From: Fimbriimonadia bacterium
GTDB taxonomy: Bacteria > Armatimonadota > Fimbriimonadia > Fimbriimonadales > JABRVX01
Direction of reading: 5' to 3'
DNA: 64,000 nucleotides
Assembly: GCA_041483895.1 (NCBI GenBank)
Contig: JBGPGO010000015.1
Location: 6,526 to 70,525 of the forward strand
How positions within the stretch are numbered: position 1 is the first letter of the stretch; every line of letters starts with the position of its first letter. The notes under the pieces are model-generated. The model was not told where the DNA came from and ran no database searches. It saw only the letters and a program-made list of their open reading frames with translations. Shown one piece after another: positions 17,460-64,000 of this stretch. The translations under genes were made by a program, and so were the position numbers.

Positions 17460-17469
17460 CAGCGGCCTT

Positions 17470-17545: not shown

Positions 17546-17781
17546 ATAATGTGGCCCACCCGCCCGGACCTTCGGTTCCGCCTCCGGTCGGTTTCCGCGT
17601 CCGGTCCCCGCGCTTCGCTTGGGGCTGCGTCGCTTTGCGCCCAATCACGAAAAGGGCAAAGCCAGATGCGGCGGGCTACGACGCTCGCCGTCCATGGCTC
17701 GCTGTTCCGGGGAACACGCCTCCAACAATTCAACCTTGTCGGTCAAATTTGAATTTACGGCTTCGCCGAACCTGGATTAAC

Positions 17782-18300: not shown

Positions 18301-18410
18301 ACGAACACCTCCGTATGCTAATTCCTGCTATTTATGGAAAGTCCTGTTTGTCCCCAACAAAATCCACAATCCGATTCGGAGATTCCCCGCACCCGCACAG
18401 TTGCATTAAC

Positions 18411-18887: not shown

Positions 18888-18976
18888 AATAGAATTACCT
18901 CCTACACAAGCATTGTCCCTCGGAAACGGTAATCCTGCAACTTTGCCAGAAAACTCGCTCACCGACCTCGGACACC

Positions 18977-19186
18977 TTAGGCGCTCTTCAGGTCCACTGT
19001 CACGGTCTCAAACTGCTTGCCCTCAACCGACTCCCGGACCGCCTCAACATACAACTCGATGGCCTCGGGGATATTGTTCAATGCTTCTTCCCGAGTCTCG
19101 CCTTGGGAAACACAGCCAGGAAGAACAGGCACCAAAACCGAATAGCCGCCTTCGTTTTCGGGAATGAGTTGGACTGTATACGTCAC
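18977..19186 (-). CDS. HicB-like (UPF0150) antitoxin-family protein
   Basis: 69 aa. YSVLVPVLPGCVSQGETREEALNNIPEAIELYVE matches the HicB N-terminal domain pattern. No HicA-like ORF is adjacent. Confidence 0.7.
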   Translation of the reverse strand: MTYTVQLIPENEGGYSVLVPVLPGCVSQGETREEALNNIPEAIELYVEAVRESVEGKQFETVTVDLKSA

Positions 19187-19193
19187 GGGGATA

Positions 19194-19592
19194 TTATAAC
19201 TCTTTCCGCTTGCGCCAAATCATTGCGTCGAGGCTCCAATCTCCACCGCCTTGCGCCGCCAAGAATAGGAAGATGAAACAGAGCAACACGGCGGGTTCGC
19301 CGTGGTTTTGGATGGGCCACGCCCCGTTGGGTTGGTGAAACTGGAAATAGGCCACGGCCATCTCGCCGGATAGGATGAAAGCGACCGGCCGAGTGAAGAG
19401 CCCCAGCATGATCAGCGCGCCGCCAAAGAACTCGAGCGTCCCGCCGATCCAGACCTGCGTTGTCATGACAGCGCCGGGCGGCATCCCACCGAACCAGTGG
19501 AATAACATCATGCCGCCGACCTGCACGAACAACAGCCCAGCAACGACGCGAAGCAAGAAGTGCGTGACCTGTACGGCCCGTTCCTTGTTCAT
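19194..19592 (-). CDS. DoxX-family membrane protein
   Basis: 132 aa, four hydrophobic helices. LLRVVAGLLFVQ.G..K-type N-terminus and GGGDWSLD near the C-terminus. Confidence 0.8.
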   Translation of the reverse strand: MNKERAVQVTHFLLRVVAGLLFVQVGGMMLFHWFGGMPPGAVMTTQVWIGGTLEFFGGALIMLGLFTRPVAFILSGEMAVAYFQFHQPNGAWPIQNHGEPAVLLCFIFLFLAAQGGGDWSLDAMIWRKRKEL

Positions 19593-20077
19593 CGACTGCC
19601 TCCCACGAGTTCGGCGAGACGATCCAGCATTTCGATCCAGCTCGGATAAGCCCCCGTTCGCTTCGCAACCGACTCCAAAACCGTCTGATGCAGAGTGACC
19701 TTTGTCTTCCCATCATCCTCCGCGAAAGTTACTGTCACCGTCGTCTCACTCGGCCACTCAGGATCCATGCCGGCATCCACTGGCTCTATCAAATTGCCGT
19801 TCTCATCCGATATGGCAAGTGTGTACACGATCCGCTCCGGCGCAACGATTTCGCGATAGACGCCCTTGCACCAACAGTCATGATGATTGGGATTCTGGAT
19901 GCAGTGGTGAAAGACGCCACCTTCGCGCACATCGATCATTTTGATCTGGATTGTGCAACCCCTCGGAGCATACCATCGCTCGAGCTGCTCGGGATCGGTC
20001 CATGCATTGAACACGAGTTCCCTCGGGGCATCAAAGATTCGCGTGATGAGAACTTCTCGATCAGTTGCAACGCTCAT
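19589..20077 (-). CDS. SRPBCC/Aha1-domain protein
   Basis: ITRIFDAPRELVFNAWTDPEQLERWYAP is the typical AHSA1/SRPBCC N-terminus. 4-nt overlaps with both neighbouring genes. Confidence 0.85.
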   Translation of the reverse strand: MSVATDREVLITRIFDAPRELVFNAWTDPEQLERWYAPRGCTIQIKMIDVREGGVFHHCIQNPNHHDCWCKGVYREIVAPERIVYTLAISDENGNLIEPVDAGMDPEWPSETTVTVTFAEDDGKTKVTLHQTVLESVAKRTGAYPSWIEMLDRLAELVGGSR

Positions 20078-20439
20078 TTCAACATCCTTTCTTCGTTCTC
20101 CTTGATCCTCGCCTTGATCAGCTTCTTCACGAGCGCGACGGGGAGCGGTTTGCCGGGCAAAAAGTGGATAGTTGCCTTGGCAGTCTCATACGATTTGAGT
20201 TCGTCCTGGAATGCATCCATTGTCCTTGTGCCCATAACAAAGAAACTGCAGTGATTCTTGAAGGCAGCAAAGCCCACAAGCAGCCCATGATATTTGTACG
20301 CCGGAATCTGGTAGCTGATGACCTCGACAGCCTTTGGTGCGACGGATTTGATCGTCTTCCGGAGGTCTTCCAACGACCTCCGCGCATCTTCCGGCACCGA
20401 CGCAAGGTAGGAGTCTACATCTCTCGCCGCGGTTCTCAT
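20074..20439 (-). CDS. DUF1801 (YdhG-like) protein
   Basis: DVDSYLASVPEDARRSLEDLRKTIKSVAP...ISYQIPAYKYHG pattern. 121 aa. Confidence 0.8.
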   Translation of the reverse strand: MRTAARDVDSYLASVPEDARRSLEDLRKTIKSVAPKAVEVISYQIPAYKYHGLLVGFAAFKNHCSFFVMGTRTMDAFQDELKSYETAKATIHFLPGKPLPVALVKKLIKARIKENEERMLK

Positions 20440-20933
20440 GCCAACTCACCGAGAAGCTGCTCGAGTCGGTCATAGGCCTCGCCCGCACCTTTCTCCATCC
20501 CGGACTGGAACGCCGCGTTGCGACCCGCCTTTGATGGGAACCACATCGTTGACGTAAGCCTCGTCTTGCCATCGATCTCGTCAAAAACGGTCGTTACTAC
20601 CGCCTCCTCATTCGACCACGGCTCCACGTCAAAGATCTGCGTGCGAACCACCCGCGAAGGGGGGCTCACTTCACGATACACTCCCTTGAACGGAAAGTCC
20701 TGGCCCTCAATTCGGTTGACGAGCCGATACGCGCCACCAACCCGCAGATCGATCGTGCAATGAGGCGCGGTGTAGTCTTTCGGTCCCCACCATCGCTTGA
20801 AATGCTCGGGTTCGGTCCACGCTTTCCATATCACATCCGGCGGCGCATCGAAGACGCGCGTGATGACAAGCTCTCTGTCCGCATTGGTTTCGCTCATGTT
20901 GCTACTCCTCCTATCCTTCTTGTCAATTCCCAA
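20436..20933 (-). CDS. SRPBCC/Aha1-domain protein (second copy)
   Basis: ITRVFDAPPDVIWKAWTEPEHFKRWWGP. An alternative start at MSETNADREL (20897) is possible. Confidence 0.85.
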   Translation of the reverse strand: MGIDKKDRRSSNMSETNADRELVITRVFDAPPDVIWKAWTEPEHFKRWWGPKDYTAPHCTIDLRVGGAYRLVNRIEGQDFPFKGVYREVSPPSRVVRTQIFDVEPWSNEEAVVTTVFDEIDGKTRLTSTMWFPSKAGRNAAFQSGMEKGAGEAYDRLEQLLGELA

Positions 20934-20957
20934 GTTGTCCTGCGTGTAACATCCAGA

Positions 20958-21308
20958 TCACGCTTTGCGACTACGCCGCTTCTCCTTTTTCTGCAGCTCC
21001 TGCAGATAGTCGTCCAGCCGATCGAAGCTTTCCTCCCAGAACCGGCGATAGTGCTCGACCCAGTCCGCAACCTCTCTCAGCCGTCCCGCCTTCAATCGGC
21101 AGGGCCGCCATTGGGCCTCCCGGCTGCGTGCGATGAGCCCCGCCCTTTCCAAGACTTTCAGGTGCTTGGAAATCGCCGGCAGGGTCATATCGAACGGCTT
21201 TGCCAACTCTGTCACAGAGGCATCTCCCGACGCCAGCCGCGCCAGGATCGCCCTGCGGGTGGGGTCGGATAAGGCTGAAAAGGTTGTTGTCAGATGATCT
21301 GCCAGCAT
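20958..21308 (-). CDS. ArsR/SmtB-family transcriptional regulator
   Basis: FSALSDPTRRAILARL and the HTH VTELAKPFDMTLPAISKHLKVLERAGLI. 116 aa. First gene of the SRPBCC/DUF1801/DoxX operon. Confidence 0.88.
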   Translation of the reverse strand: MLADHLTTTFSALSDPTRRAILARLASGDASVTELAKPFDMTLPAISKHLKVLERAGLIARSREAQWRPCRLKAGRLREVADWVEHYRRFWEESFDRLDDYLQELQKKEKRRSRKA

Positions 21309-21317
21309 TCTTGTTTC

Positions 21318-21372
21318 ACCATTCGGTTAGATAACCGTTTGGTATAATACCACAGAATTTTTGGGATGTCAA
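21318..21372 (-). promoter_or_regulatory. sigma-70-type promoter plus palindromic operator of the ArsR operon
   Basis: On the minus strand: TTGACA (21367-21372), 17-nt spacer, TATTAT (21344-21349). Directly after it lies the 12-2-12 inverted repeat ACCATTCGGTTA-GA-TAACCGTTTGGT (21318-21343), 9 nt before the ATG. Confidence 0.55.
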
Positions 21373-21401
21373 GGAGTTTTTTGAAAAAATGTTTGTTCCC
21401 G

Positions 21402-21959
21402 TTACCGATCCCTAACGGACTGCAACCGGTGGACAAATTCATCGCTTCCTTTGATGGCAGCGAGCTCAATTGAATGCTGCTCCATATAATCCCAATCCAA
21501 ATTCGGTCCCTGACGACGCACGATCCCATTGACATCCACCCAATCCTGATCTCGTCCGGCAAACGCCTTCATCAATATCAGATCTTCTGCCGAGACCACC
21601 GTGAGCTTGATCCCATCCCCATACTCAACGGAAATCCGCCGCTCTATTACCAATTCCTCATATGGAAACCCAGCCAATGCGACATCGATGGCGATGCCAT
21701 CTTCACTTTCCAAGAGCAGCACTCGAGCTTCACGAGCAAAGTCGCGTGCATCGGAAATCCGTGATTTGAACGCCCCAAGCAACTCGACGACGTAATCATC
21801 TTCGCCGCCCAGCGAGGTGAAAAGTGTTACATCTACGTCCAACGTTGAGCGAATCTCACCCCATGCAAGATTTGCAATTCCTCCGATAAATGCAAACTTC
21901 CACTGACGTGCCGTGAAATAGTCCTCAACCTTGACTGCCACGGCCAGAATGTCATGCAT
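21402..21959 (-). CDS. minimal nucleotidyltransferase-fold protein (TA-toxin-like)
   Basis: FIGGIANLAWGEIRSTLDVDV fits the G[GS]-x(9-13)-D-x-D motif of the pol-beta NTase superfamily. 185 aa. Its start overlaps the upstream ORF's stop by 8 nt (AATGCATGA). Confidence 0.7.
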   Translation of the reverse strand: MHDILAVAVKVEDYFTARQWKFAFIGGIANLAWGEIRSTLDVDVTLFTSLGGEDDYVVELLGAFKSRISDARDFAREARVLLLESEDGIAIDVALAGFPYEELVIERRISVEYGDGIKLTVVSAEDLILMKAFAGRDQDWVDVNGIVRRQGPNLDWDYMEQHSIELAAIKGSDEFVHRLQSVRDR

Positions 21960-22251
21960 TACGTGCCTTCAAAAAGGCTCGGTACCACTCGATAAGGCCT
22001 GTTGTCGTTCGAGGGGGGAGATTCTTTCTCAAGAATGATGTATCTGGTAGTTGCCATACCGCCACGGCGGTCACAACCTCCCGCAGCTCGCACGTTTGCA
22101 AGGCTTTCACGCGGGCAAAGCCAAAACCTGCGCCGAGCATCAGTTTGGGGTCTGGTTTCACAAACTCATTGTACTCGATGGGTCGCTTATCCGTACGTCG
22201 GCTTCTGCGGCCAGCCAGGCGGCGAATCCTCAAAATCCTCTTGCCTGCCAT
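21952..22251 (-). CDS. small hypothetical protein, possible partner of the nucleotidyltransferase
   Basis: Translationally coupled to the NTase gene. The start is uncertain: 22251 overlaps the DUF899 remnant, and ATG 22140 would give 62 aa. No family recognised. Confidence 0.4.
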
Positions 22252-52984: not shown

Positions 52985-53293
52985 GTGGTCGCGAAAAAAC
53001 TGATCATCAGCCGTGATGCTCGGCGAGATTTGCTAGAGATTTACAAGTATCTTGAGATTAAGAGTGGAAATCCTTCGTCCGCATTTCGGGCGCTCCGGGC
53101 GATCTATCGGGAATTGCAGCGTGTGGGCCGTTCGCCGGGTGTTGGCCATATCCGAGAAGATTTGACGAAGAAGCCTTGGAGGTTTTGGAGCAAATTCAGT
53201 TATCTGATTGCGTACGAAGAGCAGGAAGCGAGCGTAACTGTCTTTCGCGTCCTTCACGCGGCGCGTGACCTACGCCGGTGGCTCGAGGGTTAA
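52985..53293 (+). CDS. parE: ParE/RelE-family type II toxin
   Basis: GTG start, 102 aa. ISRDARRDLLEIYKYL...YLIAYEEQEASVTVFRVLHAARDL is typical of ParE. Confidence 0.8.
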   Translation: MVAKKLIISRDARRDLLEIYKYLEIKSGNPSSAFRALRAIYRELQRVGRSPGVGHIREDLTKKPWRFWSKFSYLIAYEEQEASVTVFRVLHAARDLRRWLEG

Positions 53294-53302
53294 GGATTTC
53301 TT

Positions 53303-53325
53303 CCTTCACAGTCGCACTGTGAAGG
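53303..53325. repeat. 23-bp palindromic repeat, copy A
   Basis: CCTTCACAGT-CGC-ACTGTGAAGG, 10 nt after the parE stop. Confidence 0.85.
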
Positions 53326-53415
53326 GAGCACTTTCCGTAGCCGTGGGTCGAGTTGGCAGTCGCTTTCAGCTGCCCATAGCCAAGACCCACGGTGACCGTG
53401 CTGCAGCGAGGGCCT

Positions 53416-55290
53416 CTATTCTAAGAAATACCGCACGTTTGTGACCACGACGTTGCGTCTTCCTCCAAGCGCAAACTTCAGTTGAAATGCTAAGTTCTCT
53501 TGGAGGAAGCGGTGATACCATTTCGAGGGCACCGCCTCAGGAACAATCACGGTGACGGTCTCGTCGGGAAACTCCGCCCGCATTTGGTCCACGTATTCGA
53601 GGATCGGATCGATCAGTGATCGATAGGGCGAATCAAGGATGATGAGCGGCACTCCTGAAGCGAACAGATCCCACTCCTCCTTGATCTCAGGAACGGTCTT
53701 CGCATTGATCGAAACGTGGATCGCTCGGACCTCGTTGGTATGGAGACTGACGGCATAATCCAAGGCTTTTAGAACACCGCGGTGGATTCGCGGTACAAGA
53801 ACTAGGACAGAGTTGGTTGTTGCGATTCTCGAGGGTTGAAGATCGGCCCCAAGTTGCGTGGCAATGAAGTCGTAGCGGCCCTTAATTAGCCGAAAGCCGA
53901 CATAGAAGGCCAGCGTCAACACCGCGATCAGCCACGCGCCTTCGGAGAATTTCGTAACAAGAAGAACGATCGTCACGATCCCTGTGATGAGACCGCCAAC
54001 GGTGTTAATTATCATACTAAAGCCGTGACCAGGCTCCCCGATCTTTCTCCAATGCGCCACCATGCCGGCTTGCGATAACGTAAATGCGGTAAACACCCCA
54101 ACCGCATAAAGTGGCAGCAGCTGATCCAGCTCACCATGGTATACCCAGACAAGAACTGCCGAAGCCAGCGCAAGAAGTAGGATTCCGTTTTGGAACACCA
54201 GCCGGTCACCCTGCCGGGCCAGCGAGCGCGGCAAGTAACCGTCGCGCGACAACAGGCTCGATAACCTCGGAAAATCCATGAAGCTTGTATTCGCCGCCAG
54301 AATCAAGATTGCGGCCGTCGCGAACTGAACAAAATAAAAGAGTCCGCTGCCATGCCCAAAAGTCCAAGCCCCAATCTGAGCGACGAGCGTGGAATATGCG
54401 GGATTCTTCGTTGCATACAGCTCGATGTGAGGCAAATGCAATGCGATATAGCCAAGACCCAAGAACAATACCGTCAAAATGGAAGCCATAATCAGAAGCG
54501 TGCGGGAGGCATTTCGAGCTTCCGGAGGCCGAAAGGCGGGAACACCATTGCTCACAGCTTCTATCCCCGTCAACGCGGTGCAGCCGGCCGCGAAGGAGCG
54601 CAAAATGATGAACAGCAAAGGAAAACTGGCCTCACTCCCAATTGCGCCGGGCTCCGCGACGATCGTCTGTGCTCCGCCGGGCGTGTGCGCAGCTTTATAA
54701 ACTCCAAAGGCCAAGAGCAGCAGCATCGCGACCAAGAACCCGTATGTCGGCAACGAAAACAGCGCTCCGGATTCTCGAACCCCCCGCAAATTCCCGAATG
54801 CGATCACGGCGATACACATAACGCTGATTGGCACGAGTAAGTGATGGAGCGCCGGGTACGCCGACACGATCGCCGCGACGCCGGCCGCAACCGACACCGA
54901 CACCGTCAACACATAGTCGATCATCAGCGCGGCGCCGGCGATCAGACCCGGCGTTTCTCCCAAATTGCTGCTTGCAACAATGTAAGAGCCGCCGCCGCCT
55001 GGATAGGCATAGATCGTTTGCTTGTAAGACCATGCCACGATCCCGATCAATAGAGCGATGGATAGGGACAGCCAAAACTGCAACCCGGCAAGGCTCGCCG
55101 ATGAGAGAACAAGGACGCTCAGGATCGCCTCGTTCGCGTAGGCGCTGGACGAGAGATTGTCGGAAGCGAATACCGGCAGGCCGGTCAGGATGCCGAGACG
55201 TTCGTGGTGGGCTTCGGCCGTGGGAATGGGCGCGCCAAAGAGGATACGCTTGAGTTGCCGAAAGGGAGAAACGCGGACCTCCACACCCAT
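53416..55290 (-). CDS. APC-superfamily permease with C-terminal cytoplasmic domain
   Basis: LKRILFGAPIPTAEAHHERLGILTGLPVFASDNLSSSAYANEAIL N-terminus, about 12 TM helices, then a roughly 170-aa soluble tail. 624 aa. Confidence 0.85.
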   Translation of the reverse strand: MGVEVRVSPFRQLKRILFGAPIPTAEAHHERLGILTGLPVFASDNLSSSAYANEAILSVLVLSSASLAGLQFWLSLSIALLIGIVAWSYKQTIYAYPGGGGSYIVASSNLGETPGLIAGAALMIDYVLTVSVSVAAGVAAIVSAYPALHHLLVPISVMCIAVIAFGNLRGVRESGALFSLPTYGFLVAMLLLLAFGVYKAAHTPGGAQTIVAEPGAIGSEASFPLLFIILRSFAAGCTALTGIEAVSNGVPAFRPPEARNASRTLLIMASILTVLFLGLGYIALHLPHIELYATKNPAYSTLVAQIGAWTFGHGSGLFYFVQFATAAILILAANTSFMDFPRLSSLLSRDGYLPRSLARQGDRLVFQNGILLLALASAVLVWVYHGELDQLLPLYAVGVFTAFTLSQAGMVAHWRKIGEPGHGFSMIINTVGGLITGIVTIVLLVTKFSEGAWLIAVLTLAFYVGFRLIKGRYDFIATQLGADLQPSRIATTNSVLVLVPRIHRGVLKALDYAVSLHTNEVRAIHVSINAKTVPEIKEEWDLFASGVPLIILDSPYRSLIDPILEYVDQMRAEFPDETVTVIVPEAVPSKWYHRFLQENLAFQLKFALGGRRNVVVTNVRYFLE

Positions 55291-55582
55291 GAAACAACCC
55301 CTTCCGTTACCTAGATGGTGTGCCGGCGCTTGACTGCGGTAAGGCAGTTCGAACGCCTTTGTTGGTTGTCAGCCGTTGGGCCGCGACCAGAAAAGTATCG
55401 GAAGCATCGTACCAGCCACCCGAGCCGGCATTGGGCGATCTTTATGAAATCTTAATGCCCTATGCGGAGCGCCGGCACGGGGAGCGCTGGCATCCTGCCG
55501 GCATTGATCTCCCTGCACAATCCCCAATGTGAAGGACTTCGCAGCAGGTTGCCGGCGTGGGTCCCGACGAAGGGTCCAAATA

Positions 55583-55605
55583 CCTTCACAGTCGCACTGT
55601 GAAGG
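55583..55605. repeat. 23-bp palindromic repeat, copy B
   Basis: Sequence identical to copy A (CCTTCACAGTCGCACTGTGAAGG), 7 nt after the stop of gene 55612-56382. An extra half-site TGTGAAGG lies at 55528-55535. Confidence 0.85.
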
Positions 55606-55611
55606 CATTCC

Positions 55612-56382
55612 CTACCCCAACGGCTCATCCGAAACGATCAAGAAGTCGTACTTCGTACGAAGCATATCGGCCTCGCCGTCGAGTACACGTTTCACTGCCC
55701 AACCGGTAACGAAGTTCAGCGCCCCATTCTTGTCAATCGCCGGGCCCCACTCGTGCCCGACCCATTTCAGGCCCTTGTCCCGAATAGCTATCTCGCCGAT
55801 CAGCGCGCCCATTCCGGCAATCAAGAAGTCACGCATGCCCGAAGGCTCCTTCTTGATCCGCTTGGCCATACCGTCCAAAGCATCGATGGAGATGGGCCGA
55901 TAATCGACCAGTACACCATATCGATCCTTGGCATATTCGATGAACAGCTCGGCCTGGAATGCCATCCAGTCTGGGAGTGGGGCGCCGGGATTGGTGATGG
56001 TGGAATAATATTGTAACTGAAGGCACTCCTCCATCCCGCCATGCAGCCGGGTCGCCGCTGAGGTGATAGGTTCGAGAGAAGCGGAACCTCGTCCCTCTTC
56101 CGATCGAACTTCGTGCTCGCCGACCCAGCCCCAGCCGTGGGTGTGCACATAAATCTCGCCATGAATCTGCCCAAGCGTGCCGATCATGGCGTGTCTCGGA
56201 TCGTCTGGTAATTCGCCCCCCGTTCCCAAGACATCGTCGATCTTCTTAATAGACGCAGGACTCAGGTCCAACGGGACCTTGTACTGCTCCTTTGCGTAGG
56301 CGATGTTGAACAGCACCGGGTCCTCCGGCATCTTCGCACCCTGCCCATTGCCTCCAAACAACCGCTGCAACTTGTCCCACAT
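55612..56382 (-). CDS. hypothetical protein with internal two-fold duplication
   Basis: 256 aa, no signal peptide. The two halves align by eye: YKVPLDLSPASIKKIDDVLG...IGTLGQIHGEIYVHTHGWGWVGEHE versus YGVLVDYRPISIDALDGMAK...IAGMGALIGEIAIRDKGLKWVGHEW. Confidence 0.65.
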   Translation of the reverse strand: MWDKLQRLFGGNGQGAKMPEDPVLFNIAYAKEQYKVPLDLSPASIKKIDDVLGTGGELPDDPRHAMIGTLGQIHGEIYVHTHGWGWVGEHEVRSEEGRGSASLEPITSAATRLHGGMEECLQLQYYSTITNPGAPLPDWMAFQAELFIEYAKDRYGVLVDYRPISIDALDGMAKRIKKEPSGMRDFLIAGMGALIGEIAIRDKGLKWVGHEWGPAIDKNGALNFVTGWAVKRVLDGEADMLRTKYDFLIVSDEPLG

Positions 56383-56410
56383 AGGCTGCTTATACCCTGG
56401 AATTGTTTTC

Positions 56411-56433
56411 CATTCACAGTCGCACTGTGAAGG
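56411..56433. repeat. palindromic repeat, copy C (outer arm degenerate)
   Basis: CATTCACAGTCGCACTGTGAAGG, 29 nt upstream of the start of gene 55612-56382. Confidence 0.8.
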
Positions 56434-56830
56434 GCGATCGCGCTATCTTTTCGCGCGACGGAGGGCGGTGCGGAGGGCGCGGATTTCGTCCCGGAAGGCG
56501 CGGGATTGCTCACCGCGGATGTCTAGGTTCTCCAATACCTCCTCGCAAGCGTCCCGCAGATCGCCTGCTGCCGAATAACCTCGCCAACCTCTCCGTGGCC
56601 TCGACGCTCCCCTGGTCCACCACCTCGCATATCCCCGGGATGACAAACGTTCCATTCGCCAACTTCTCGGCCGCCGGCCAACTCGACGCAAGAAGAAAGA
56701 TATATGTTTGCTTGAACGCATATCTCATTTCTGCGATCAAATTCAAAGGTGGATTTTGTGAGCTATCCTGCCACCAATTTAGAACCACTTGTTAACTCTT
56801 TTTTCGATATAGAGTAAAAAACACGTAAGT

Positions 56831-56862
56831 ATACCAGTACAACAATCGAATAGTACTGGTAT
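56831..56862. promoter_or_regulatory. 10-bp inverted repeat upstream of the GHKL gene (candidate operator)
   Basis: ATACCAGTAC-N12-GTACTGGTAT in an AT-rich stretch 139 nt upstream of ATG 57001. Its function is only inferred. Confidence 0.35.
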
Positions 56863-57000
56863 TATTCTGAGAAGCCCATTTCTAGGGCAAACTGAAGAGA
56901 GGAAACCCCGGCGCTGGGCGCCAGGGCTCCTCAGGTTTTGAAAGAACAACTCATTATACAGCCTGAGAGCTCGTCCAGTGCCGGGTAAGCAATAAAAATC

Positions 57001-59202
57001 ATGTTAGAGACGAAACAAGAAAACAACACAGAAGTTATCCGGTCGGGTCAGGTGGGAAGGAATAGGGACGACATGACAACAGGCAGGATTGCAGCACCAG
57101 TAGGTTCGATTTGGGCGTACCCGCGAAAGAGCGCCTTTCGAAAATTAGCGGATCAATTCCAATTGAGAACTGGGATTACAGAATTGGTCGATAACGTCGT
57201 GGACAATTTCCATCGGTGCAGCCAGTTCGGCAATCATTCGCCCTCAGAGCTGCGAATTGATATTCGCATCTCGCCAGAGCGGGTCGAAATATTCGACAAC
57301 TCAGGTGGCGTGCAGCCAGAAGAGCTTGGGAACCTTGTGACGCTGGGCGCGGCAAGCGAAACGCCGAACCGCATTGGAGTTTGGAGTATGGGCTTTAAGA
57401 TGGCCACGCTCGGAATCGGCTGGACCACAGAGGTCACTTCGACTCCATACAACGGCGCCGACTACTATATCGACGTGCCAGATTCGAAAACGAAGCGGGG
57501 GATTCCGTCAGTTCGGATCGCTCTCAACCGGACTTGGTGGTTGGATGAGAAGGACTGGGAAGTACCCATCGGCCTGCCTTCTGACCCACCTTCGCGCGGC
57601 GTAACGAGGATTGAAATCACTGAACTGCGGGAAGACTTGGATCCAGTAACTATTGACGCCCTAGTGGAGGAAGTTACCAGTGATCTCGGAAGCTACTTTG
57701 GCGACATCGCTGCAGCGCAGGCTACTCCCTTTCGGATATTTGTGAATGATATTGAGGTGAAGTTCACAGAGCGCCTTTCTGGTGCAGCCATCCGCGGGAC
57801 GTTTGCTTCCGGTTCCGAATGGGGTCCAGGACGACATGTGTTTAGCTTCGTAAAGCGCGGTGATGATGGCCGTTCGCGGACTCTGGATATGGAGGTTATT
57901 GCAGGCATTCAGCCGACTGCGACGGCAGAAAACCACGGCGCATTTCTATTCGGAGATCCGGGAGCGGGTCCGAGATATTTCGTCCGGCTTGACGACCTTC
58001 GGAGGCACGGATTTACTGATCGCGTCACCTCCCAGGAGTTTCGCCGGGTAAGGCTACTGGTGACTTTCAAAGGTGACGCCGATTTGATACCTTGGACGAA
58101 TCCAATCAAGAATGGGTATCGGGAAGACCATCCATTGAGAAGGCAGGTTCAAGACGCATTGCGGCAGGTGATTGCACCGCTGGAAGACCTTTGCCGAGAG
58201 CACTACGAATTCGATACGCTCCCATTCTCTTCAACCTGGGACGATCTCAGCCTCGTCGATCGGGTAAGCCGGATCGTCAGGCCGCTAGCTCTAAGTGAAG
58301 ATGACGCGAACGACCCAGATTTGAACCAAGGGTTGATTGACGTCATCGCACGCAATTGGATGTCCGACGGCGATTGGCAATCACCATTGTGGGATCACCA
58401 AGTTGACAAGTTGCCGCCAACCAAACGGCCTTTCTGGGATGGAGATTCTGCGAATGAAGCGAAGCTCAAACGGGCCAATCGCAACAAGATTCTCCGAAGG
58501 AACTCGGGCCTCAATCAATACAGGTTGCTTTTAGCCTGGTTCAATGGCGACGATTTGCTTCCCGTCGAAAAAGAACTGATCTCCGGCCAAATGCAACCAT
58601 GGTCGAATCTGGGTCAAATGGAAGAAGAAAGGCAGGGTGGGGACATAGCTGCCTCCACTTCCCAAGGAGCAAGACCAAGGGAGGAGCTTGCAGAACCTGC
58701 CCCAACGCAACCTACTGAAATGCAACAGTCGGTCATTCAGGTGTGCGCGCCCATGCCCGAGAAGCTCGTTTATGAGGTCGAACAACTGACTAGTTCAGTA
58801 AACAGAGCAGAGGCAGTGCGCGTTGCGTTGGCGGCGTTCGTGCTTTGGCACAGGGAGCGGGCTGGAAACAGCCAGACGCCGGTCGAGTTGCCGCAGGATC
58901 CCCTCAGAACCCGCAGGGGAAGGCCGCGAAAGTCTCTGGACGAATTCGACCAGCCGTCTCATACACCTGGATCGCCCTTGGCGGCGCAAAATGACATCAG
59001 CCCGGAGGAGATAGGGGCGAACTTGCAACTATTAACTCCGCGTGAGCGCGAGGTGCTGAAGTTGCGCATGGGGATCAACGACCGTCGAAAACGAACGTTG
59101 AAGGAAGTCGGGTACGAACTAAAAATAACCCCCGAGCGCGTCCGCCAAATTGAGCTCCGCGCGTTGAGAAATCTGCGCGCCCGTTTGACGCCGGAGAACT
59201 GA
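57001..59202 (+). CDS. GHKL (MORC/paraMORC-like) ATPase fused to an RHH-like segment, an AT-hook and a sigma-70 region-4 HTH
   Basis: Uninterrupted 733-codon ORF. Bergerat-fold motifs occur in order: ITELVDNVVDN (N-box), IFDNSGGV (G1), IGVWSMGFKMATLG (G2). C-terminus: VIQVCAPMPEKLVYEVEQLTSSVNRAEAVRVALAAFVLW, RTRRGRPRKS, LTPREREVLKLRMGINDRRKRTLKEVGYELKITPERVRQIELRALRNLR. Confidence 0.8.
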   Translation: MLETKQENNTEVIRSGQVGRNRDDMTTGRIAAPVGSIWAYPRKSAFRKLADQFQLRTGITELVDNVVDNFHRCSQFGNHSPSELRIDIRISPERVEIFDNSGGVQPEELGNLVTLGAASETPNRIGVWSMGFKMATLGIGWTTEVTSTPYNGADYYIDVPDSKTKRGIPSVRIALNRTWWLDEKDWEVPIGLPSDPPSRGVTRIEITELREDLDPVTIDALVEEVTSDLGSYFGDIAAAQATPFRIFVNDIEVKFTERLSGAAIRGTFASGSEWGPGRHVFSFVKRGDDGRSRTLDMEVIAGIQPTATAENHGAFLFGDPGAGPRYFVRLDDLRRHGFTDRVTSQEFRRVRLLVTFKGDADLIPWTNPIKNGYREDHPLRRQVQDALRQVIAPLEDLCREHYEFDTLPFSSTWDDLSLVDRVSRIVRPLALSEDDANDPDLNQGLIDVIARNWMSDGDWQSPLWDHQVDKLPPTKRPFWDGDSANEAKLKRANRNKILRRNSGLNQYRLLLAWFNGDDLLPVEKELISGQMQPWSNLGQMEEERQGGDIAASTSQGARPREELAEPAPTQPTEMQQSVIQVCAPMPEKLVYEVEQLTSSVNRAEAVRVALAAFVLWHRERAGNSQTPVELPQDPLRTRRGRPRKSLDEFDQPSHTPGSPLAAQNDISPEEIGANLQLLTPREREVLKLRMGINDRRKRTLKEVGYELKITPERVRQIELRALRNLRARLTPEN

Positions 59203-59232
59203 TAAGCGAATATCAATAGGTTCGTTATTAAC

Positions 59233-59269
59233 GTCGCGGCAACAGGATGCAATGACTTGTTGCCGCGAC
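59233..59269. terminator. bidirectional hairpin between the GHKL gene and the restriction endonuclease gene
   Basis: GTCGCGGCAACA-N13-TGTTGCCGCGAC (12-bp perfect stem), lying between stops 59202 (+) and 59282 (-). No strong T-tract. Confidence 0.55.
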
Positions 59270-59281
59270 CTAACGTCCCAG

Positions 59282-59893
59282 CTATACCTCGACACCAATC
59301 AACACTAACGGCACGGCTGGCACACCGCGGCCCTGTCGGACGACGTTGTAAAGCTCGCCCTCATAGTAGGCAATGCCGGAGCTCATTTGCTTCGAGAGAG
59401 ACTTCATTGGAACCAATTCGATTCCCACATCGACCTGGTCGCCAACGTAGAACGCGAGGTGCTTAACGAAAATGTCATACGCCACGAACGAGTACTTGCC
59501 GAATTGGACTTCTAGGGCGACGCGATCTCTTACGAAATCAGTTTGGTTATAGCTAAAGATCGGTTCGTAGCCAGCCGCCTCAATTTCGGCCTTTTGCTCC
59601 TCAGCGCTCATAGTCATAGTCTTTCTGATCAGCCTTTGGTCTCTTGTAACCCAATAGTTAACACGGCTTTCGGACCATCCGCGCACTCTCAGCAATTCGG
59701 CAAATGCCTTATTGAGGTCGATAGGCGAAAACAGTTTACGGCCGGGCATTGTCTTTTCTTTGGAAATTTTCGTCCGACACTTGTCTGCGTCAACGAGGTC
59801 GATGACATCTCTGATCTCTTGATAAAGGGCCGGTTTATGGACCATGAGAAATTCGACCCCGTTGAGGTGGGAATAGACCTCGGCGATCTTCAA
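59282..59893 (-). CDS. type II restriction endonuclease, BglII/BstYI-like
   Basis: 203 aa. DFVRDRVALEVQFGKYSF matches the BglII catalytic stretch (D..EVQF), recalled from memory. SSGIAYYEGELYNV and VPLVLIGV resemble the BglII C-terminal blocks. ATGA-coupled to the upstream methyltransferase. Confidence 0.7.
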   Translation of the reverse strand: MKIAEVYSHLNGVEFLMVHKPALYQEIRDVIDLVDADKCRTKISKEKTMPGRKLFSPIDLNKAFAELLRVRGWSESRVNYWVTRDQRLIRKTMTMSAEEQKAEIEAAGYEPIFSYNQTDFVRDRVALEVQFGKYSFVAYDIFVKHLAFYVGDQVDVGIELVPMKSLSKQMSSGIAYYEGELYNVVRQGRGVPAVPLVLIGVEV

Positions 59894-60840
59894 TCCGCAG
59901 CCTCTGGGCTAAGTCCAAATGCGGTTTGGCCATTCGTCTCCCACGGGTTTCTCGCCAGTTTGCTATTCGAGCCAGTAGGATCGTAAACCGGTCTACCCAT
60001 TGGACGAGTCCGAAGGTTTCCTGCCAACTCCAAGTTGATTCGCTCCCTAGCGATCTCTATGTACTTAGAATGGATCTCACTTCCGGCCCCCAGACGTCCG
60101 TGCCGCACTGCGGCAATTATGCTCGTACCTGTCCCAAGGAACGGATCGTATACCCAATCGTCCTCATTCGTCATAGAGAGGACAAGCCGCTCGATAAGCT
60201 CCACCGGAAATTGGCACGGATGCACCGTTTTCTCAACATGATTGTTCTTGACGTTCGGGATTACCCAAAGGTCGCCAGGGTTCTTACCGAGCGGGTTTCC
60301 GGAGTATTCACCTGCACGGGGTCCCTTAAAATGCTTCTTGCCGGGGTACTTCTGGGGTACACGGACGCCATCCAAATTGAACACGTAATTGTCCGACTTC
60401 GTGAACCAGATTATCGTTTCATACCTACCGGAAAACCTTTTACTGCAATGAAGCCCATGTTCGAAGTGCCAGATGATTCGATTACGCATCTTCAGTCCAA
60501 GATCGGCGAAAATCGGATAGAGGATGGTGTCGAGTGGAATGATTTGTCTACCGTCAACGTAGTTGCCCACTTGCCAGCAGATGCTTCCAGTTGATTTCAA
60601 CGCGCGGACGCACTCGCGAATCACAGCCGCCTGTTGCTCGACGTACTGATCCAATTTGAGCCTCTTCTCGTATTCCTTGCCGAGGTTGTAAGGCGGTGAG
60701 GTCACGACGAGTTGCAACGTCCCGTTTGGCACGGTCTTAAGAAACTGGAGACAGTCGCCATCGTTCACAATGATTCGTGCGTCCAGCGCAAACCTTGTCG
60801 CAATTCGAGTCCTTTTGCTTCCAATTAGGGCCATTGTCAT
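59890..60840 (-). CDS. DNA methyltransferase, beta-class N4-cytosine/N6-adenine (SPPY)
   Basis: Start set at ATG 60840 (AAGGGAG 12 nt upstream). Motif IV (LVVTSPPYNLGKEY) precedes motif I (DPFLGTGTSIIAA), which defines the beta permutation. Confidence 0.85.
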   Translation of the reverse strand: MTMALIGSKRTRIATRFALDARIIVNDGDCLQFLKTVPNGTLQLVVTSPPYNLGKEYEKRLKLDQYVEQQAAVIRECVRALKSTGSICWQVGNYVDGRQIIPLDTILYPIFADLGLKMRNRIIWHFEHGLHCSKRFSGRYETIIWFTKSDNYVFNLDGVRVPQKYPGKKHFKGPRAGEYSGNPLGKNPGDLWVIPNVKNNHVEKTVHPCQFPVELIERLVLSMTNEDDWVYDPFLGTGTSIIAAVRHGRLGAGSEIHSKYIEIARERINLELAGNLRTRPMGRPVYDPTGSNSKLARNPWETNGQTAFGLSPEAAD

Positions 60841-60985
60841 GTGCAATTTTACTCCCTTCACGCATCTTCCTGTGTGGGGTGTGGAAAAGTCCTGTGACAC
60901 ATGACTCGCGCCGAAGTTCGTTTTGTGACAAAAAAGTCGTCGCCGCAGCCGTTGGGGTTGGTTCTCGGAGATTGGAATTGCCGGT

Positions 60986-61004
60986 CGGGGCTGCGGCTAC
61001 GGGT
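60986..61004. repeat. 19-bp direct repeat, left copy (overlaps the Dam-like MTase stop)
   Basis: CGGGGCTGCGGCTACGGGT, identical to 61970-61988. Confidence 0.85.
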
Positions 61005-61821
61005 TTAGCGTCGCCAGCATCTCGTCAGCGGGGAGGCGTTCCTGGCAGGATATCCGGCGGGGGGCGGAGAGGATTTGGATGTCGAAGCCGAGGGAGGCGT
61101 AGAGGTCGAGGATGCGTTCGGTGGCCTGGTTGGACGCGACGACCGGGCCGGGGTGGCGGGAGAGCCAATGGGCCAGGCGGACCTGGTCGTCCCAGGTGAA
61201 GTCGTCCTTTGAGTACTTGGTGAACTCCACATCGTAGGGAGGGTCGGCATAGATCAAGTCGTTCGGCGACGGGGATAGGTCTTCGAAGTCGCGGCACAGG
61301 AGTTCATAGTCCTGAAGAACCTCTTTGTACTCTCGGAAATCGCGCGTGTAGGTGATTGTCTTGTATTGCCCGAACGGCACATTGAAATGGCCACTGTTGT
61401 TGAAGCGGCAGAGGCCGTTGTAGCCCGTGCGGTTGAGGTAATAGAACAGAGTCGCGGCCTCTTTTGTCGCCGCCTTGCCGGCCGCGATCAGCTCGTTGAA
61501 TCGCTCGCGATTTTCGTAATAGGTCTCGGAATCGTTAAGGAGCTCCACTGATGGACGGTGGCCGTTCGAACTTGCCGCCGTGGGCATGCGCAGCCCGCGC
61601 TGCAACCAGGTGTAGAAGTTGATGAGATGGGCGTTGCGGTCGGCCAGCAGCGCCCGTTCCGGCTGCAAACCGAGTGCCACCGCCATCCCCCCAACAAATG
61701 GCTCAACTAGCCGACGGTGTCTGTGGGGTTCATACAGTTCGCGCAAGATCGGAACAAGCCACCGCTTTCCGCCCGCCCATTTTAGGGGGGGATCGAGGGT
61801 TGGTTGGGTTAGGGTGGGCAT
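60997..61821 (-). CDS. Dam-like (D12 class, alpha-type) N6-adenine DNA methyltransferase
   Basis: Start set at ATG 61821 (274 aa). PLKWAGGKRWLVP, EPFVGGMAVAL (motif I), then YADPPY (motif IV). Confidence 0.85.
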   Translation of the reverse strand: MPTLTQPTLDPPLKWAGGKRWLVPILRELYEPHRHRRLVEPFVGGMAVALGLQPERALLADRNAHLINFYTWLQRGLRMPTAASSNGHRPSVELLNDSETYYENRERFNELIAAGKAATKEAATLFYYLNRTGYNGLCRFNNSGHFNVPFGQYKTITYTRDFREYKEVLQDYELLCRDFEDLSPSPNDLIYADPPYDVEFTKYSKDDFTWDDQVRLAHWLSRHPGPVVASNQATERILDLYASLGFDIQILSAPRRISCQERLPADEMLATLNP

Positions 61822-61969
61822 TGCGCCTATTCTACACCGGCGGATGCGGATGGTGTTTGGGTCTAGGTTGGTTGAAGTTGGGGAGTTATCGGTACCAGTG
61901 GACCCAAACACATCCAAAAGGGACGGCAGGGACTTGAGGGACCTCAGCCAATTGCGCACGATCGGCATG

Positions 61970-61988
61970 CGGGGCTGCGGCTACGGGT
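61970..61988. repeat. 19-bp direct repeat, right copy
   Basis: CGGGGCTGCGGCTACGGGT, 984 bp from the left copy. Located 149 nt upstream of the MTase start and 15 nt before the fucosidase ATG. Confidence 0.85.
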
Positions 61989-62002
61989 GTACAATTTAGA
62001 AA

Positions 62003-64000
62003 ATGTTCCCCCTGATCATCCTCATGCTCACCCAAATCCCTCCGAAAACCCTCCCCCCGGTGCCGAGCGCAAGGCAGCTCGCCTGGCACCAGATGGAGTT
62101 CTACGCCTTTGTCCACTTCGGCATGAACACCTTCACCGACCGGGAGTGGGGCCAAGGGACCGAGCCCGAGAGCCTGTTCAACCCCAGTCACCTCGACTGC
62201 CGCCAGTGGGTCCGCGCCTTCAAGGCCGCCGGGATGAAGGGCGTCATCATCACCGCCAAACACCACGACGGATTCTGCCTCTGGCCCTCCAAATACACCG
62301 AGCATTCCGTGAAGAACAGCCCTTGGAAGGGGGACGTGTTGCGCGAGCTGTCCGACGCCTGCAAGGAGTACGGTCTGAAGTTGGGCGTCTACGTCTCGCC
62401 CTGGGACCGCAACCAACCCGTCTATGGCGATTCGCCCAAATACAACGAATATTTTAGGAACCAGCTTCGCGAAGTGCTGACCCACTACGGCCCCATCTTC
62501 GAGGTCTGGTTCGACGGCGCGAACGGCGAGGGACCGAACGGCAAGCGCCAAGTATACGACTGGCCCGGCTACATAAAAGTGGTGCGCGAGTGCCAGCCGA
62601 ACGCCGTCATCTTTAGCGACGCGGGGCCGGACGTGCGGTGGGTCGGCAACGAGGACGGCTACGCGGCCGCCACTAATTGGTGCATGCTCAATCGCGACCA
62701 GTTCTATCCCGGCGGGCCGGGGTCGGAGCAGTTGCCGATGGGTCACGAGGACGGGACGCATTGGGTGCCAGCGGAGTGCGATGTCTCCATCCGCCCAGGC
62801 TGGTTTTATCACGCCGGCGAGGACGCGCGGGTGAAGACGGTGCCGGAGCTTCTGGACATCTACTATGCGTCGGTCGGGCAGAACGGCTCTTTTTTGCTCA
62901 ATGTTCCGGCGGATAAACGTGGGCTGATTGCCGACGTGGATGTCGCGCGATTGGCGGCTTTCCGGCATGCGCTGGATGAGACGTTCAAGACCGATTTGGC
63001 GCGCGGGGCAAAGGCGACGGCAAGCAGTGCGCGGAAGGGCTTCCCCGCTTCCAATGCGACCGATCAGTCCGATCAGTCCTATTGGGCCGCAAAGGACGGT
63101 GTCACCGAAGCAACGCTTACTCTGGATATGCGGAAACCGCAGACATTCAACCGCATCGTCCTGCAGGAATCCATCGCGCTGGGCCAGCGGGTGAAGTCGT
63201 TTACCATCGAATACTACAAGGGCGGAAAATGGCAGACGCTGGCGGATGGCACGACGATAGGCCACAAGCGCATCTTCCGCACCAAAACAACTACGGCGCA
63301 GAAGGTGCGGCTGGTCATCCACGACGCCCGCGCCTGTCCGACCATCTCCACCTTTGCACTCTATGCCGCCCCGCCGACCGTTGATATCGAGGGCACAACG
63401 GATTTCATCGATTCGACCATGGTGACGCTCCTGTCCGACTTCCCCGGCGCAACGATTTTCTACTCGGCCGATGGATCGGATGCAACCAAGGGGTCAGTGA
63501 AATACACCGGTCCGTTTCGACTGACGAAATCAGGGACCGTAAGGGTGGTGGTGTACTACCACAATGTCGGCAGCCTTTCGACGGCGATGCAGAAATTCAC
63601 ACGATACGAGAAGGCCGACCTGCGCCCAGCCATCGTCTTCGTCCGCGCGCCGGATGAGGGCTTGCGCTACGCCTATTACGAGGGCGGCTGGCAGCACCTG
63701 GGCGACATGACAAAACACACACCGGTTCTGGTAAAGACCACGCCGGATTTCAGCATAAGGGTCCGGAAGCGGGACGAGAACTTTGGCCTGCGCTTCACCG
63801 GCTTTATCAACGTCCCGACCGACGGCATCTACACGTTCTACACCGCGAGCGACGACGGCAGTCGGCTGTCAATCGGCGACAAACTGGTGGTGGATAACGA
63901 CGGTCTGCATGGGATGGTGGAGAAGTCCGGCGTCATCGGCCTGCGCGCGGGTTTCCATCCGATAACGGTGGACTATTTCAACCTGAGCGGCGGCCTGGGG
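62003..64000 (+). CDS. GH29 alpha-L-fucosidase with F5/8 type C and PA14-like C-terminal domains (3' end outside window)
   Basis: Absent from the supplied track. My own translation from ATG 62003 gives 666 codons with no stop up to the window end. AWHQMEFYAFVHFGMNTF, ITAKHHDGFCLWPS, EVWFDGANGEG (GH29). KATASS..NATD..YWAA (discoidin-like). GLRFTGFINVPTDGIYTFYTASDDGSRLSIG (PA14-like). Confidence 0.9.
   Translation, partial: MFPLIILMLTQIPPKTLPPVPSARQLAWHQMEFYAFVHFGMNTFTDREWGQGTEPESLFNPSHLDCRQWVRAFKAAGMKGVIITAKHHDGFCLWPSKYTEHSVKNSPWKGDVLRELSDACKEYGLKLGVYVSPWDRNQPVYGDSPKYNEYFRNQLREVLTHYGPIFEVWFDGANGEGPNGKRQVYDWPGYIKVVRECQPNAVIFSDAGPDVRWVGNEDGYAAATNWCMLNRDQFYPGGPGSEQLPMGHEDGTHWVPAECDVSIRPGWFYHAGEDARVKTVPELLDIYYASVGQNGSFLLNVPADKRGLIADVDVARLAAFRHALDETFKTDLARGAKATASSARKGFPASNATDQSDQSYWAAKDGVTEATLTLDMRKPQTFNRIVLQESIALGQRVKSFTIEYYKGGKWQTLADGTTIGHKRIFRTKTTTAQKVRLVIHDARACPTISTFALYAAPPTVDIEGTTDFIDSTMVTLLSDFPGATIFYSADGSDATKGSVKYTGPFRLTKSGTVRVVVYYHNVGSLSTAMQKFTRYEKADLRPAIVFVRAPDEGLRYAYYEGGWQHLGDMTKHTPVLVKTTPDFSIRVRKRDENFGLRFTGFINVPTDGIYTFYTASDDGSRLSIGDKLVVDNDGLHGMVEKSGVIGLRAGFHPITVDYFNLSGGLG

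Follow-up and report, generated by a model that had tools for sequence, protein, structure and literature searches.

A MORC-like GHKL-RHH ATPase ending in sigma-70 region 4, found beside a BstYI-type restriction-modification pair and a Dam-family gene in a Fimbriimonadia bacterium, and its possible link to DNA modification

We have analyzed a 64,000-nucleotide stretch of DNA from a Fimbriimonadia bacterium (assembly GCA_041483895.1, contig JBGPGO010000015.1, positions 6,526 to 70,525 of the forward strand; the whole stretch is hereafter called the window), with emphasis on a gene whose 733-residue product joins a GHKL ATPase, a ribbon-helix-helix (RHH) element and a sigma-70 region 4 helix-turn-helix (HTH), and on the restriction-modification (R-M) pair that faces it. 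Judging from its sequence and a structural model, this protein is a MORC-like GHKL (Bergerat-fold) ATPase, and by sequence it is an outlying member (~30% identity) of a rare family of MORC-like GHKL-RHH ATPases. Because all readable loci of its relatives adjoin DNA-modification genes, we consider a role of the family in DNA marking or restriction likely, and we give about an even chance to the view that the window ATPase is functionally tied to one or the other; the link, which is guilt by association only, is likely to be with DNA modification in general. The original prediction, made from this DNA alone, held that the ATPase gene and the R-M pair were acquired together as one three-gene unit. 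Our data suggest instead that the two probably arrived separately, and that the patch, located between a native gene of 92 residues (orf92) and an alpha-L-fucosidase gene, is a composite of DNA-marking and restriction genes that forms a small islet, and was not taken up as a single operon. The features of this islet are as follows:

57001-59202, plus strand: gene of the 733-residue GHKL-RHH-sigma4 protein (open reading frame (ORF) list, Pfam)
59282-59893, minus strand: gene of the BstYI-type restriction endonuclease (REase), 203 residues (Pfam, PADLOC, match in the PDB)
59890-60900, minus strand: gene of the N6_N4 methyltransferase (MTase), ORF of 336 residues (Pfam, PADLOC)
60997-61968, minus strand: ORF of a Dam-family (D12 class) MTase (Pfam, NCBIfam)
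56722-57000, no strand: A/T-rich divergent intergenic region 5' of the ATPase gene (GC 41.5% over 56690-57000)
59233-59269, both strands: hairpin in the convergent gap (folding z-scores)
60986-61007 (left copy) and 61970-61991 (right copy): 22-nt direct repeat with an exact 19-mer core

The ATPase itself is predicted to be built from five parts, all encoded on the plus strand:

57091-57750, residues ~31-250: MORC-like Bergerat ATPase domain
57751-58200, residues ~251-400: S5/transducer-like domain with the invariant Lys370
residues 401-517: helical domain, then a disordered linker
58738-58881, residues ~580-627: RHH-like element
59002-59199, residues 668-733: sigma-70 region 4 HTH

As a single sequence, the ATPase domain scored below the Pfam cut-off for HATPase_c_3 (18.1 vs. 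25 bits). In the family alignment, residues E61, N65 and D68 of motif I are invariant, as is Lys370 in the second domain, and the DxGxG and IGVWxxGxK boxes are recognizable (FDNSGGV and IGVWSMGFK in the window protein). An AlphaFold2 model built with this alignment reached a predicted local distance difference test score (pLDDT) of ~90 for residues 30-500, and Foldseek matched this part of the model to the N plus M domains of Hsp90/TRAP1 and to MORC4 with a probability of 1.0. The family profile matched MORC4 (E 1.3e-8), MORC3 (E 1.8e-7) and MORC2, within a range of E 1e-8 to 1e-5, followed by Topo VI-B, and gave no significant match to MutL (E 0.28). We surmise from these comparisons that members share a core in which a Bergerat ATPase is followed by an S5-like transducer domain carrying a conserved lysine, then by a helical domain and, at the C-terminus, by the RHH. 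The strand-helix-helix element interpreted as RHH is common to the family, and what follows it varies: sigma-70 region 4 is confined to the window protein, and members of an archaeal branch (loci L034 and L035, where the fused gene is followed by a DUF8154 gene) carry an MNT-type nucleotidyltransferase.

The C-terminal HTH of the window protein is close to the canonical sigma domain. Pfam Sigma70_r4 (PF04545) matched residues 675-727 with 48.7 bits vs. a cut-off of 24.1, and a 49-residue local alignment to region 4 of E. coli sigma70 places TRERIRQIE against TPERVRQIE, with the recognition helix differing at one position. Pfam gave no match for Sigma70_r2 or r3, and the NCBIfam sigma models covered only ~60 C-terminal residues with scores far under their cut-offs; because regions 2 and 3 are absent, the window protein is not a sigma factor.

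The family is small. An exhaustive phmmer search with residues 1-625 of the ATPase against 1.84 billion representatives yielded 144 relatives, seven of them with E < 1e-30 at ~30% identity over residues 25-540. A single-protein scan of genome contigs recovered no relatives, and patterns drawn from the alignment of the closer relatives found only 2 genome loci. Phage origin of the family was considered and rejected, there being 0 matches in 50,697 phage records and only short ATPase-domain matches in IMG/VR. No PADLOC model matched the core of the window protein or of three tested relatives, nor did any match two RusA-like partners and one small-HTH partner taken from loci L005 and L024. The GHKL-RHH family thus appears undescribed in PADLOC 2023, Pfam (weak match only), NCBIfam and the literature searched, and the same appears to hold in these libraries and literature for its RusA-like link, its 7-deazaguanine link and the singleton sigma4 fusion. 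In kind, the family is a variation on the theme of paraMORC ATPases in R-M operons.

What carries the proposed link to DNA modification is the gene neighborhood of the family. Besides the window, eight loci had enough flanking sequence to be informative, two further contigs being too short:

L002 (metagenome-assembled genome of Eubacteriales): GHKL, RusA-like, D12 MTase, N6_N4 MTase
L005: small HTH, GHKL, RusA-like, N6_N4 MTase, D12 MTase, DpnII endonuclease
L006: SIR2, AIPR/Mrr, AlwI endonuclease and two D12 MTases, divergent from small HTH, GHKL and RusA-like
L020: QueC, HTH, DpdA-like TGT/DUF5591, DpdH-like ATPase, small HTH, GHKL, HNH
L021: DpdA-like gene, divergent, adjoining the GHKL gene
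L023: DpdA-like and ParB-like (DpdB) genes, convergent, 37 bp from the GHKL gene
L024: GHKL, RusA-like, OGG-like glycosylase, DpdA, DpdB, GCHY-1, QueE, QueC, QueD, AIPR
L042: small HTH, GHKL, Vut_1-family transporter at the contig end

DNA-modification genes were found within ~6 kb of the GHKL-RHH gene in nine of these nine loci, L042 being counted via its Vut_1 gene, whose product we take to be a preQ0-salvage transporter. Some are immediate neighbors, at distances of 22 bp in L002, 37 bp in L023 and 79 bp in the window. The modification genes are either Dam/N6_N4 methylases accompanied by DpnII, AlwI or (in the window) BstYI endonucleases, or the DpdA/DpdB genes of 7-deazaguanine systems. 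Two more partners recur. At five loci, an upstream gene encodes a small protein whose C-terminal end is a sigma4-like HTH, with weak Pfam matches (HTH_38 at 27.1 bits, HTH_23 at 25.1 bits, Sigma70_r4_2 at E 2e-5) on which its likeness to sigma4 rests, a comparison of these proteins with the window sigma4 by hhalign having given no significant result. A gene for a RusA-like nuclease lies directly downstream at four loci (PF05866 over the cut-off in three), and in L020 an HNH_2 nuclease gene (12076-12495) takes its place. In the window protein, the HTH is fused to the ATPase and the dedicated nuclease gene is absent. No superfamily-II helicase was found in the neighborhoods examined. In L024, a gene for an OGG-like DNA glycosylase (PF21790, 12613-13302) stands between the GHKL/RusA-like pair and the Dpd genes.

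The REase that faces the ATPase gene matched Pfam PF09195 (Endonuc-BglII; E 1.5e-32, 113 bits vs. a cut-off of 26) over profile positions 1-163 of 163 and PADLOC REase_II over its full length (E 7.7e-97). Like BstYI (PDB 1SDO/1VRR/2P0J; PF09195), it has 203 residues, and it aligned with the crystallized enzyme (1sdo_A, 203 residues) from residues 1-201 to 1-201 (E 9.4e-93), with the stretch QTDFV.DRVA.EVQFGKYSF, containing the TDF...EVQ active site, kept. Because of this end-to-end alignment, the enzyme is, by sequence, a type IIP endonuclease orthologous to BstYI with RGATCY as predicted site; the earlier label of a BglII-like pair was right about the BglII/BstYI family and too loose about the enzyme. 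The adjoining MTase matched PF01555 N6_N4_Mtase (E 2.2e-49, 168.8 bits vs. a cut-off of 26.7) and PADLOC MTase_II (E 7.6e-84), and its motifs follow the beta-class order, SPPY (motif IV) preceding DPFLGTGTS (motif I, FxGxG). From this motif order it is predicted to be the cognate beta-class N6_N4 DNA methyltransferase. By analogy with the methylases of BamHI and BglII systems, which we take to be of the N4-cytosine type, it is probably an N4-cytosine enzyme. Its true start is likely the ATG at 60840, just preceded by GGGAG, which would give 316 residues; MTases of homologous pairs have 317-324. The two genes overlap by TTGA, with the TTG start of the REase over the TGA stop of the MTase (GAT-TGA / TTG-AAG), and not by the ATGA that had been proposed. 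Coupling of the REase to a beta-class SPPY MTase by a 4-nt overlap is shared with the closest homologous pairs.

The pair leads an independent existence elsewhere. The REase has >8000 homologs, the best of which share 75-80% identity and are spread over very different phyla, with Syntrophales, Terriglobia, Nitrospirota and Armatimonadetes represented among others. On the five contigs with the closest cluster (80% identity), only the MTase-REase pair is present, flanked by HicAB, an SLFN/AlbA gene and tRNA-synthetase-like genes, and neither a GHKL gene nor Dam was found there. Plasmid copies of the REase occur on a 4.9-kb MOBQ plasmid and on a 20.8-kb Sphingobium plasmid, neither with such an ATPase; the annotation of the Sphingobium pair shows the 4-nt overlap as well, and the record of the 4.9-kb plasmid lists only the REase, the MTase possibly crossing the record origin. 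The MTase-REase pair is a self-sufficient and widely mobile BstYI-type (RGATCY) type IIP R-M system. In the 64-kb window, 36 RGATCY sites were observed vs. 61.6 expected, an observed-to-expected ratio (O/E) of 0.58 with all four hexamers depleted and no depletion of other NGATCN hexamers or of GATC itself, which suggests long exposure of this genome to the RGATCY specificity, rather than recent arrival.

Directly to the right lies a fourth DNA-modification gene, overlooked when the patch was described as containing exactly three genes, all of which were correctly located. Its product is, by sequence, a Dam-family (D12 class) N6-adenine MTase, with matches to TIGR00571 dam (194.2 bits vs. a cut-off of 114.85) and PF02086 MethyltransfD12 (E 5.8e-45, 154.4 bits vs. 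a cut-off of 22) and an ADPPYD motif, and the gene likely starts at Met50 (61821). The presence of a Dam gene beside the window ATPase matches the family pattern of Dam-like MTases next to GHKL-RHH genes. The longest Dam ORF is bracketed by the 22-nt direct repeat CGGGGCTGCGGCTACGGGT(T/G)TA, two exact 19-mers where 0.01 would be expected by chance, the left copy overlapping the Dam stop codon and the right copy beginning 2 nt past the Dam ATG. This suggests that the Dam gene came as a cassette of its own, by insertion or duplication, and the repeat may be the mark of the event that put Dam beside the R-M pair. As features in their own right, neither the R-M pair nor the Dam gene is remarkable, and the pair itself shows nothing unusual.

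The lowered GC of 56690-60950 noted earlier was borne out (52.1% vs. 57.1% window-wide); it is the lowest of all 4261-bp sliding windows (mean 56.9%, sd 1.7%), and the two hand counts of GC in the original prediction, for 57001-57060 and 59401-59460, were exact (46.7% and 51.7%). In 4-kb windows over 56.5-63 kb, the tetranucleotide correlation with the remainder of the window was 0.71-0.77 vs. 0.849 +/- 0.045, ranking from 2nd to 10th lowest of 121. The A/T-rich dip is real but modest, and it is not one uniform block, since ~0.5 kb at 58.6-59.2 kb, holding the RHH-sigma4 codons, has a host-like GC of 58-60% and splits it in two. Gene by gene, with the 31 long genes of the window as reference for the z-scores, the values were:

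ATPase gene: GC 54.5% (z -1.4); GC at third codon positions (GC3) 0.586 (z -1.9); codon-usage z -2.25, the lowest in the window
REase gene: GC 50.3% (z -3.1); GC3 z -1.2; codon-usage z -0.7
MTase gene: GC 51.6% (z -2.6); GC3 z -1.7; codon-usage z -1.4
Dam gene: GC 60% (z +1.1); GC3 0.77 (z +1.5); codon-usage z +0.8

Against this reference, the ATPase, REase and MTase genes are only moderately atypical, with a GC3 of 0.59-0.62 vs. 0.69 +/- 0.055 for the long genes, and the Dam gene, outside the low-GC patch, is host-like on every measure. Much of the low GC of the REase gene falls at codon position 2 (0.33), a share that reflects amino-acid composition. The tetranucleotide correlation between the ATPase gene and the R-M pair was 0.62, and random adjacent segment pairs gave 0.61 +/- 0.11. 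The DNA is therefore atypical, but its composition gives no sign that these two units share an origin. Inside the ATPase gene, GC3 climbs from 0.56 to 0.71 near codons 580-605 (permutation p = 0.03), a modest signal that would agree with fusion of an ATPase core of foreign origin to a piece of a local sigma factor. The RHH-linker-sigma4 part (codons ~580-733, nt 58738-59199) has a host-like GC3 of 0.69-0.71 and the ATPase core one of 0.56.

With respect to published systems, the nearest precedent is the description by Iyer, Abhiman & Aravind 2008 of MORC and paraMORC GHKL+S5 ATPases embedded in R-M operons, which were proposed to loop or clamp DNA and to couple marks to nucleases by analogy with MutL-MutH-Dam (PMC2292703). 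The GHKL-RHH family resembles paraMORC1-5 in that the motifs of its N-terminal Bergerat ATPase are intact, in its predicted S5-like domain, in which a lysine is conserved, in its rare and sporadic distribution, and in having DNA methylases, type II endonucleases, AIPR and HNH genes as neighbors; the solved sequences closest to its profile are MORC4, MORC3 and MORC2. In contrast to paraMORC, as judged from published descriptions, no superfamily-II helicase partner was seen in its neighborhoods; its C-terminus carries an RHH, to which some members add sigma4 or a nucleotidyltransferase, in place of the RecB-like nuclease, TIR or HxH extensions of paraMORC3-5; it is accompanied by a RusA-like nuclease and by a small HTH protein resembling sigma4; and its association with DpdA/DpdB 7-deazaguanine genes was not described in PMC2292703. 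In paraMORC3/Shedu VcSduA, the GHKL ATPase has been proposed to gate a nuclease, and both ATPase and nuclease are needed for anti-phage defense (PMC12137116). There, the nuclease (DUF4263) is fused, whereas it is absent in the window and encoded by a separate RusA-like or HNH gene in relatives, and no PADLOC Shedu model matched the window protein or the relatives tested. The likeness to MutL-MutH-Dam is one of analogy only: a GHKL+transducer ATPase stands beside Dam-type GATC methylases and endonuclease folds of the GATC family (DpnII, AlwI, BstYI), and the shared logic would be that an ATPase connects an epigenetic mark with a nuclease. Unlike MutL, the window ATPase has no MutL C-terminal dimerization/endonuclease domain, no MutS partner and no significant sequence match.

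Among defense proteins, the MZA anti-phage system is said to include a MutL-like GHKL protein (MzaB). The window protein resembles MzaA (NCBIfam NF041931; PADLOC PDLC02203), a defense-associated protein of ~700 residues ending in sigma-70 region 4, with a match that is limited to the last 60 residues (profile positions 645-704 of 726, 52 bits vs. a cut-off of 800); its N-terminal 640 residues match neither MzaA nor MzaB.

Based on these likenesses, we postulate that ATP binding would cause the ATPase to dimerize into a DNA clamp, as in MutL, MORC and paraMORC ATPases, and that the RHH and HTH elements would tether this clamp to DNA. The clamp may then couple the modification state of the DNA, set by the neighboring modification module, to a nuclease, so that in the relatives DNA of the 'wrong' modification state would be handed to the RusA-like or HNH nuclease. 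Because its HTH is fused and a dedicated nuclease is lacking, the window protein would most likely either cooperate with the R.BstYI-type enzyme next to it and with the Dam/m4C marks, or regulate the islet by ATP-dependent DNA binding. This functional picture fits paraMORC ATPases in R-M operons (PMC2292703) and the Shedu variant VcSduA, which has been validated by experiment (PMC12137116). In its most specific form, which is speculative and which we hold to be unlikely as a whole, the GHKL-RHH ATPase, the sigma4-like HTH (separate or fused) and the RusA-like/HNH nuclease would constitute a hitherto undescribed, portable mark-reading restriction or effector module that plugs into Dam m6A, m4C-type and DpdA/DpdB 7-deazaguanine modules, with the window protein as a derived member that gained a near-canonical sigma-70 region 4, lost the nuclease, and either borrows the BstYI-type enzyme or targets -35 elements or the beta-flap of RNA polymerase.

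Several points weigh against a tie of the window ATPase to modification or restriction: 1) the nine loci, mostly on short metagenomic contigs, provide an association only, part of which may come from clustering in defense islands, and the more distant archaeal members fused to a nucleotidyltransferase (L034 and L035) had no DNA-modification neighbors; 2) the window protein, which is ~30% identical to its nearest relatives and comes without small HTH or RusA-like genes, may have diverged in function, and its G2 box has a Ser where the second Gly is nearly invariant in the family; 3) its architecture is a singleton, since a word-index search of 5.8 billion clusters with the full protein found no other GHKL-RHH-sigma4 protein, returning only sigma factors via the sigma4 words and no full-length relative, and the C-terminal sigma4 fusion is confirmed in one assembly, an independent sample covering the first 351 residues only; 4) no operator common to the ATPase promoter and the R-M promoter was found.

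How the genes came together bears on the same question. A single transfer of all three, with the ATPase licensing or extending BstYI-type restriction, is largely refuted and seems to us very improbable. In its favor, the 4.26-kb stretch with the lowest GC in the window takes in all three genes, whose GC3 is similarly reduced, and they are tightly packed around a common hairpin. Of these layout claims, the convergent transcription units, the 79-bp gap (59203-59281) and the 12-bp stem all held up; the hairpin at 59233-59269 has the perfect stem GTCGCGGCAACA / TGTTGCCGCGAC, 14 bp with extensions, and folding z-scores of -5.2 on the plus and -4.1 on the minus strand. It has no U-run on either strand, the terminator scan being empty, and is therefore not a canonical intrinsic terminator. 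The claim of shared composition did not survive, given that the breaks of the two units differ, a host-like segment lies between the two low-GC blocks and the k-mer profiles of the units correlate no better than the null. Co-occurrence of GHKL genes with BglII-family enzymes likewise fails both ways, with no BglII/BstYI-family enzyme at any of 10 loci with ATPase relatives and no GHKL gene beside the closest or the plasmid-borne BstYI pairs. The RGATCY depletion implies long exposure and also argues against joint arrival, its weak point being that the ATPase gene has 3 RGATCY sites in 2.2 kb. Because the low-GC blocks are split, no k-mer signature is shared and RGATCY is depleted, we favor separate arrival of the two units. 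The idea of the ATPase as an accessory of the R-M system fares better in that the family neighborhoods support a link, but to DNA modification generally and not to BstYI-type enzymes.

Separate arrival leaves room for the view that the ATPase, the R-M pair and Dam are independent cargo at a permissive site and that the role of the ATPase is unrelated to R-M. Defense genes are known to cluster without acting jointly, the R-M pair is autonomous elsewhere, the compositional blocks differ without a shared k-mer signature, the Dam gene has its own 22-nt repeat bracket and a host-like composition, and convergent transcription precludes an operon. Such chance neighborhood is nevertheless, in our estimation, somewhat unlikely, as modification genes lie within ~6 kb in all nine informative loci, several of them adjoining, and as the chemistries differ among loci in a manner hard to obtain from generic island clustering alone. 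A further reading takes the window protein as a transcription factor that would bind a promoter (sigma4 on a -35-like element, RHH on an operator) or the beta-flap of RNA polymerase, and determine when or how strongly the modification and restriction genes beside it are expressed, in the manner of the C proteins of BglII/BamHI systems. The two DNA-binding modules, a recognition helix one side chain away from that of E. coli sigma70, the C-terminal sigma4 of the defense-associated MzaA, the separate sigma4-like HTH protein encoded by relatives and the lack of a nuclease partner in the window would all suit such a regulator. So would the inverted repeat ATACCAGTAC-N12-GTACTGGTAT at 56831-56862, upstream of the ATPase gene, which is unique in the window and is a candidate operator. 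Against this reading, no second copy of the repeat lies close to the promoters of the R-M or Dam genes. A simple controller would have no need of a 500-residue MORC-like ATPase with conserved catalytic residues, relatives have dedicated RusA-like or HNH nucleases, and the closest BstYI-type pairs function without such a protein, and hence we judge this reading to be quite improbable.

If the link of the family to DNA modification holds, several unrelated DNA-marking chemistries would have a MORC-like ATPase module as companion, among them the 7-deazaguanine (Dpd) systems, of which the restriction side is poorly understood to date. The family would also provide a compact, testable case for an old and little-tested proposal, in which MORC/paraMORC ATPases of prokaryotes link epigenetic marks to nucleases and which is the suggested evolutionary root of the eukaryotic MORC chromatin silencers. 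A natural fusion of a GHKL ATPase to sigma-70 region 4 is unusual, and could show how such ATPases reach DNA or RNA polymerase.

Several other features of the region were recorded. The 5' leader of the ATPase gene (~56907-56985, plus strand) contains a long GC-rich hairpin, the fold of 56860-57003 having -52.7 kcal/mol and a z-score of -4.2, and no Rfam family matched it in an Rfam search. A hairpin with a T-run at 60939-61000, 3' of the Dam stop, was rejected as a terminator because its fold is not significant (z -0.84), and orf478 (61886-63322, minus strand, GC at first codon positions 0.81) was rejected as an endonuclease partner of Dam, being a shadow ORF of the plus-strand fucosidase gene. 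The latter, a GH29 alpha-L-fucosidase gene, runs from 62003 to 64000, past the window end, with Alpha_L_fucos, F5/8 type C and PA14 domains. On the left side of the islet, two contigs from JGI samples 3300052990 and 3300052992 (L001 and L036), the only related contigs found, are 99.4-100% identical to 53220-58055 with the same orf92/ATPase arrangement; they represent the same population as the window DNA, and the organism and the orf92/ATPase junction are thus seen again in independent samples. Three copies of the palindrome TTCACAGTCGCACTGTGAA (53305-53323, 55585-55603 and 56413-56431) are present where 0.01 would be expected, each just 3' of a minus-strand gene (the permease, orf256 and the 92-residue ORF at 56443-56721), and the palindrome looks like a repetitive extragenic palindromic (REP)-like or terminator-like element common to the native genes left of the islet. 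A tRNA scan found no tRNA near the ATPase/R-M islet. A second atypical region at ~15000-22000, just past tRNA-Gln (17470-17545), has a tetranucleotide correlation of 0.70-0.77 and is as deviant (15-21 kb) as the ATPase/R-M patch. It holds several small ORFs of 47-52% GC without a Pfam match and a gene for an AbiEii/DUF6036-like nucleotidyltransferase toxin at 21402-21959, and is probably another small island.

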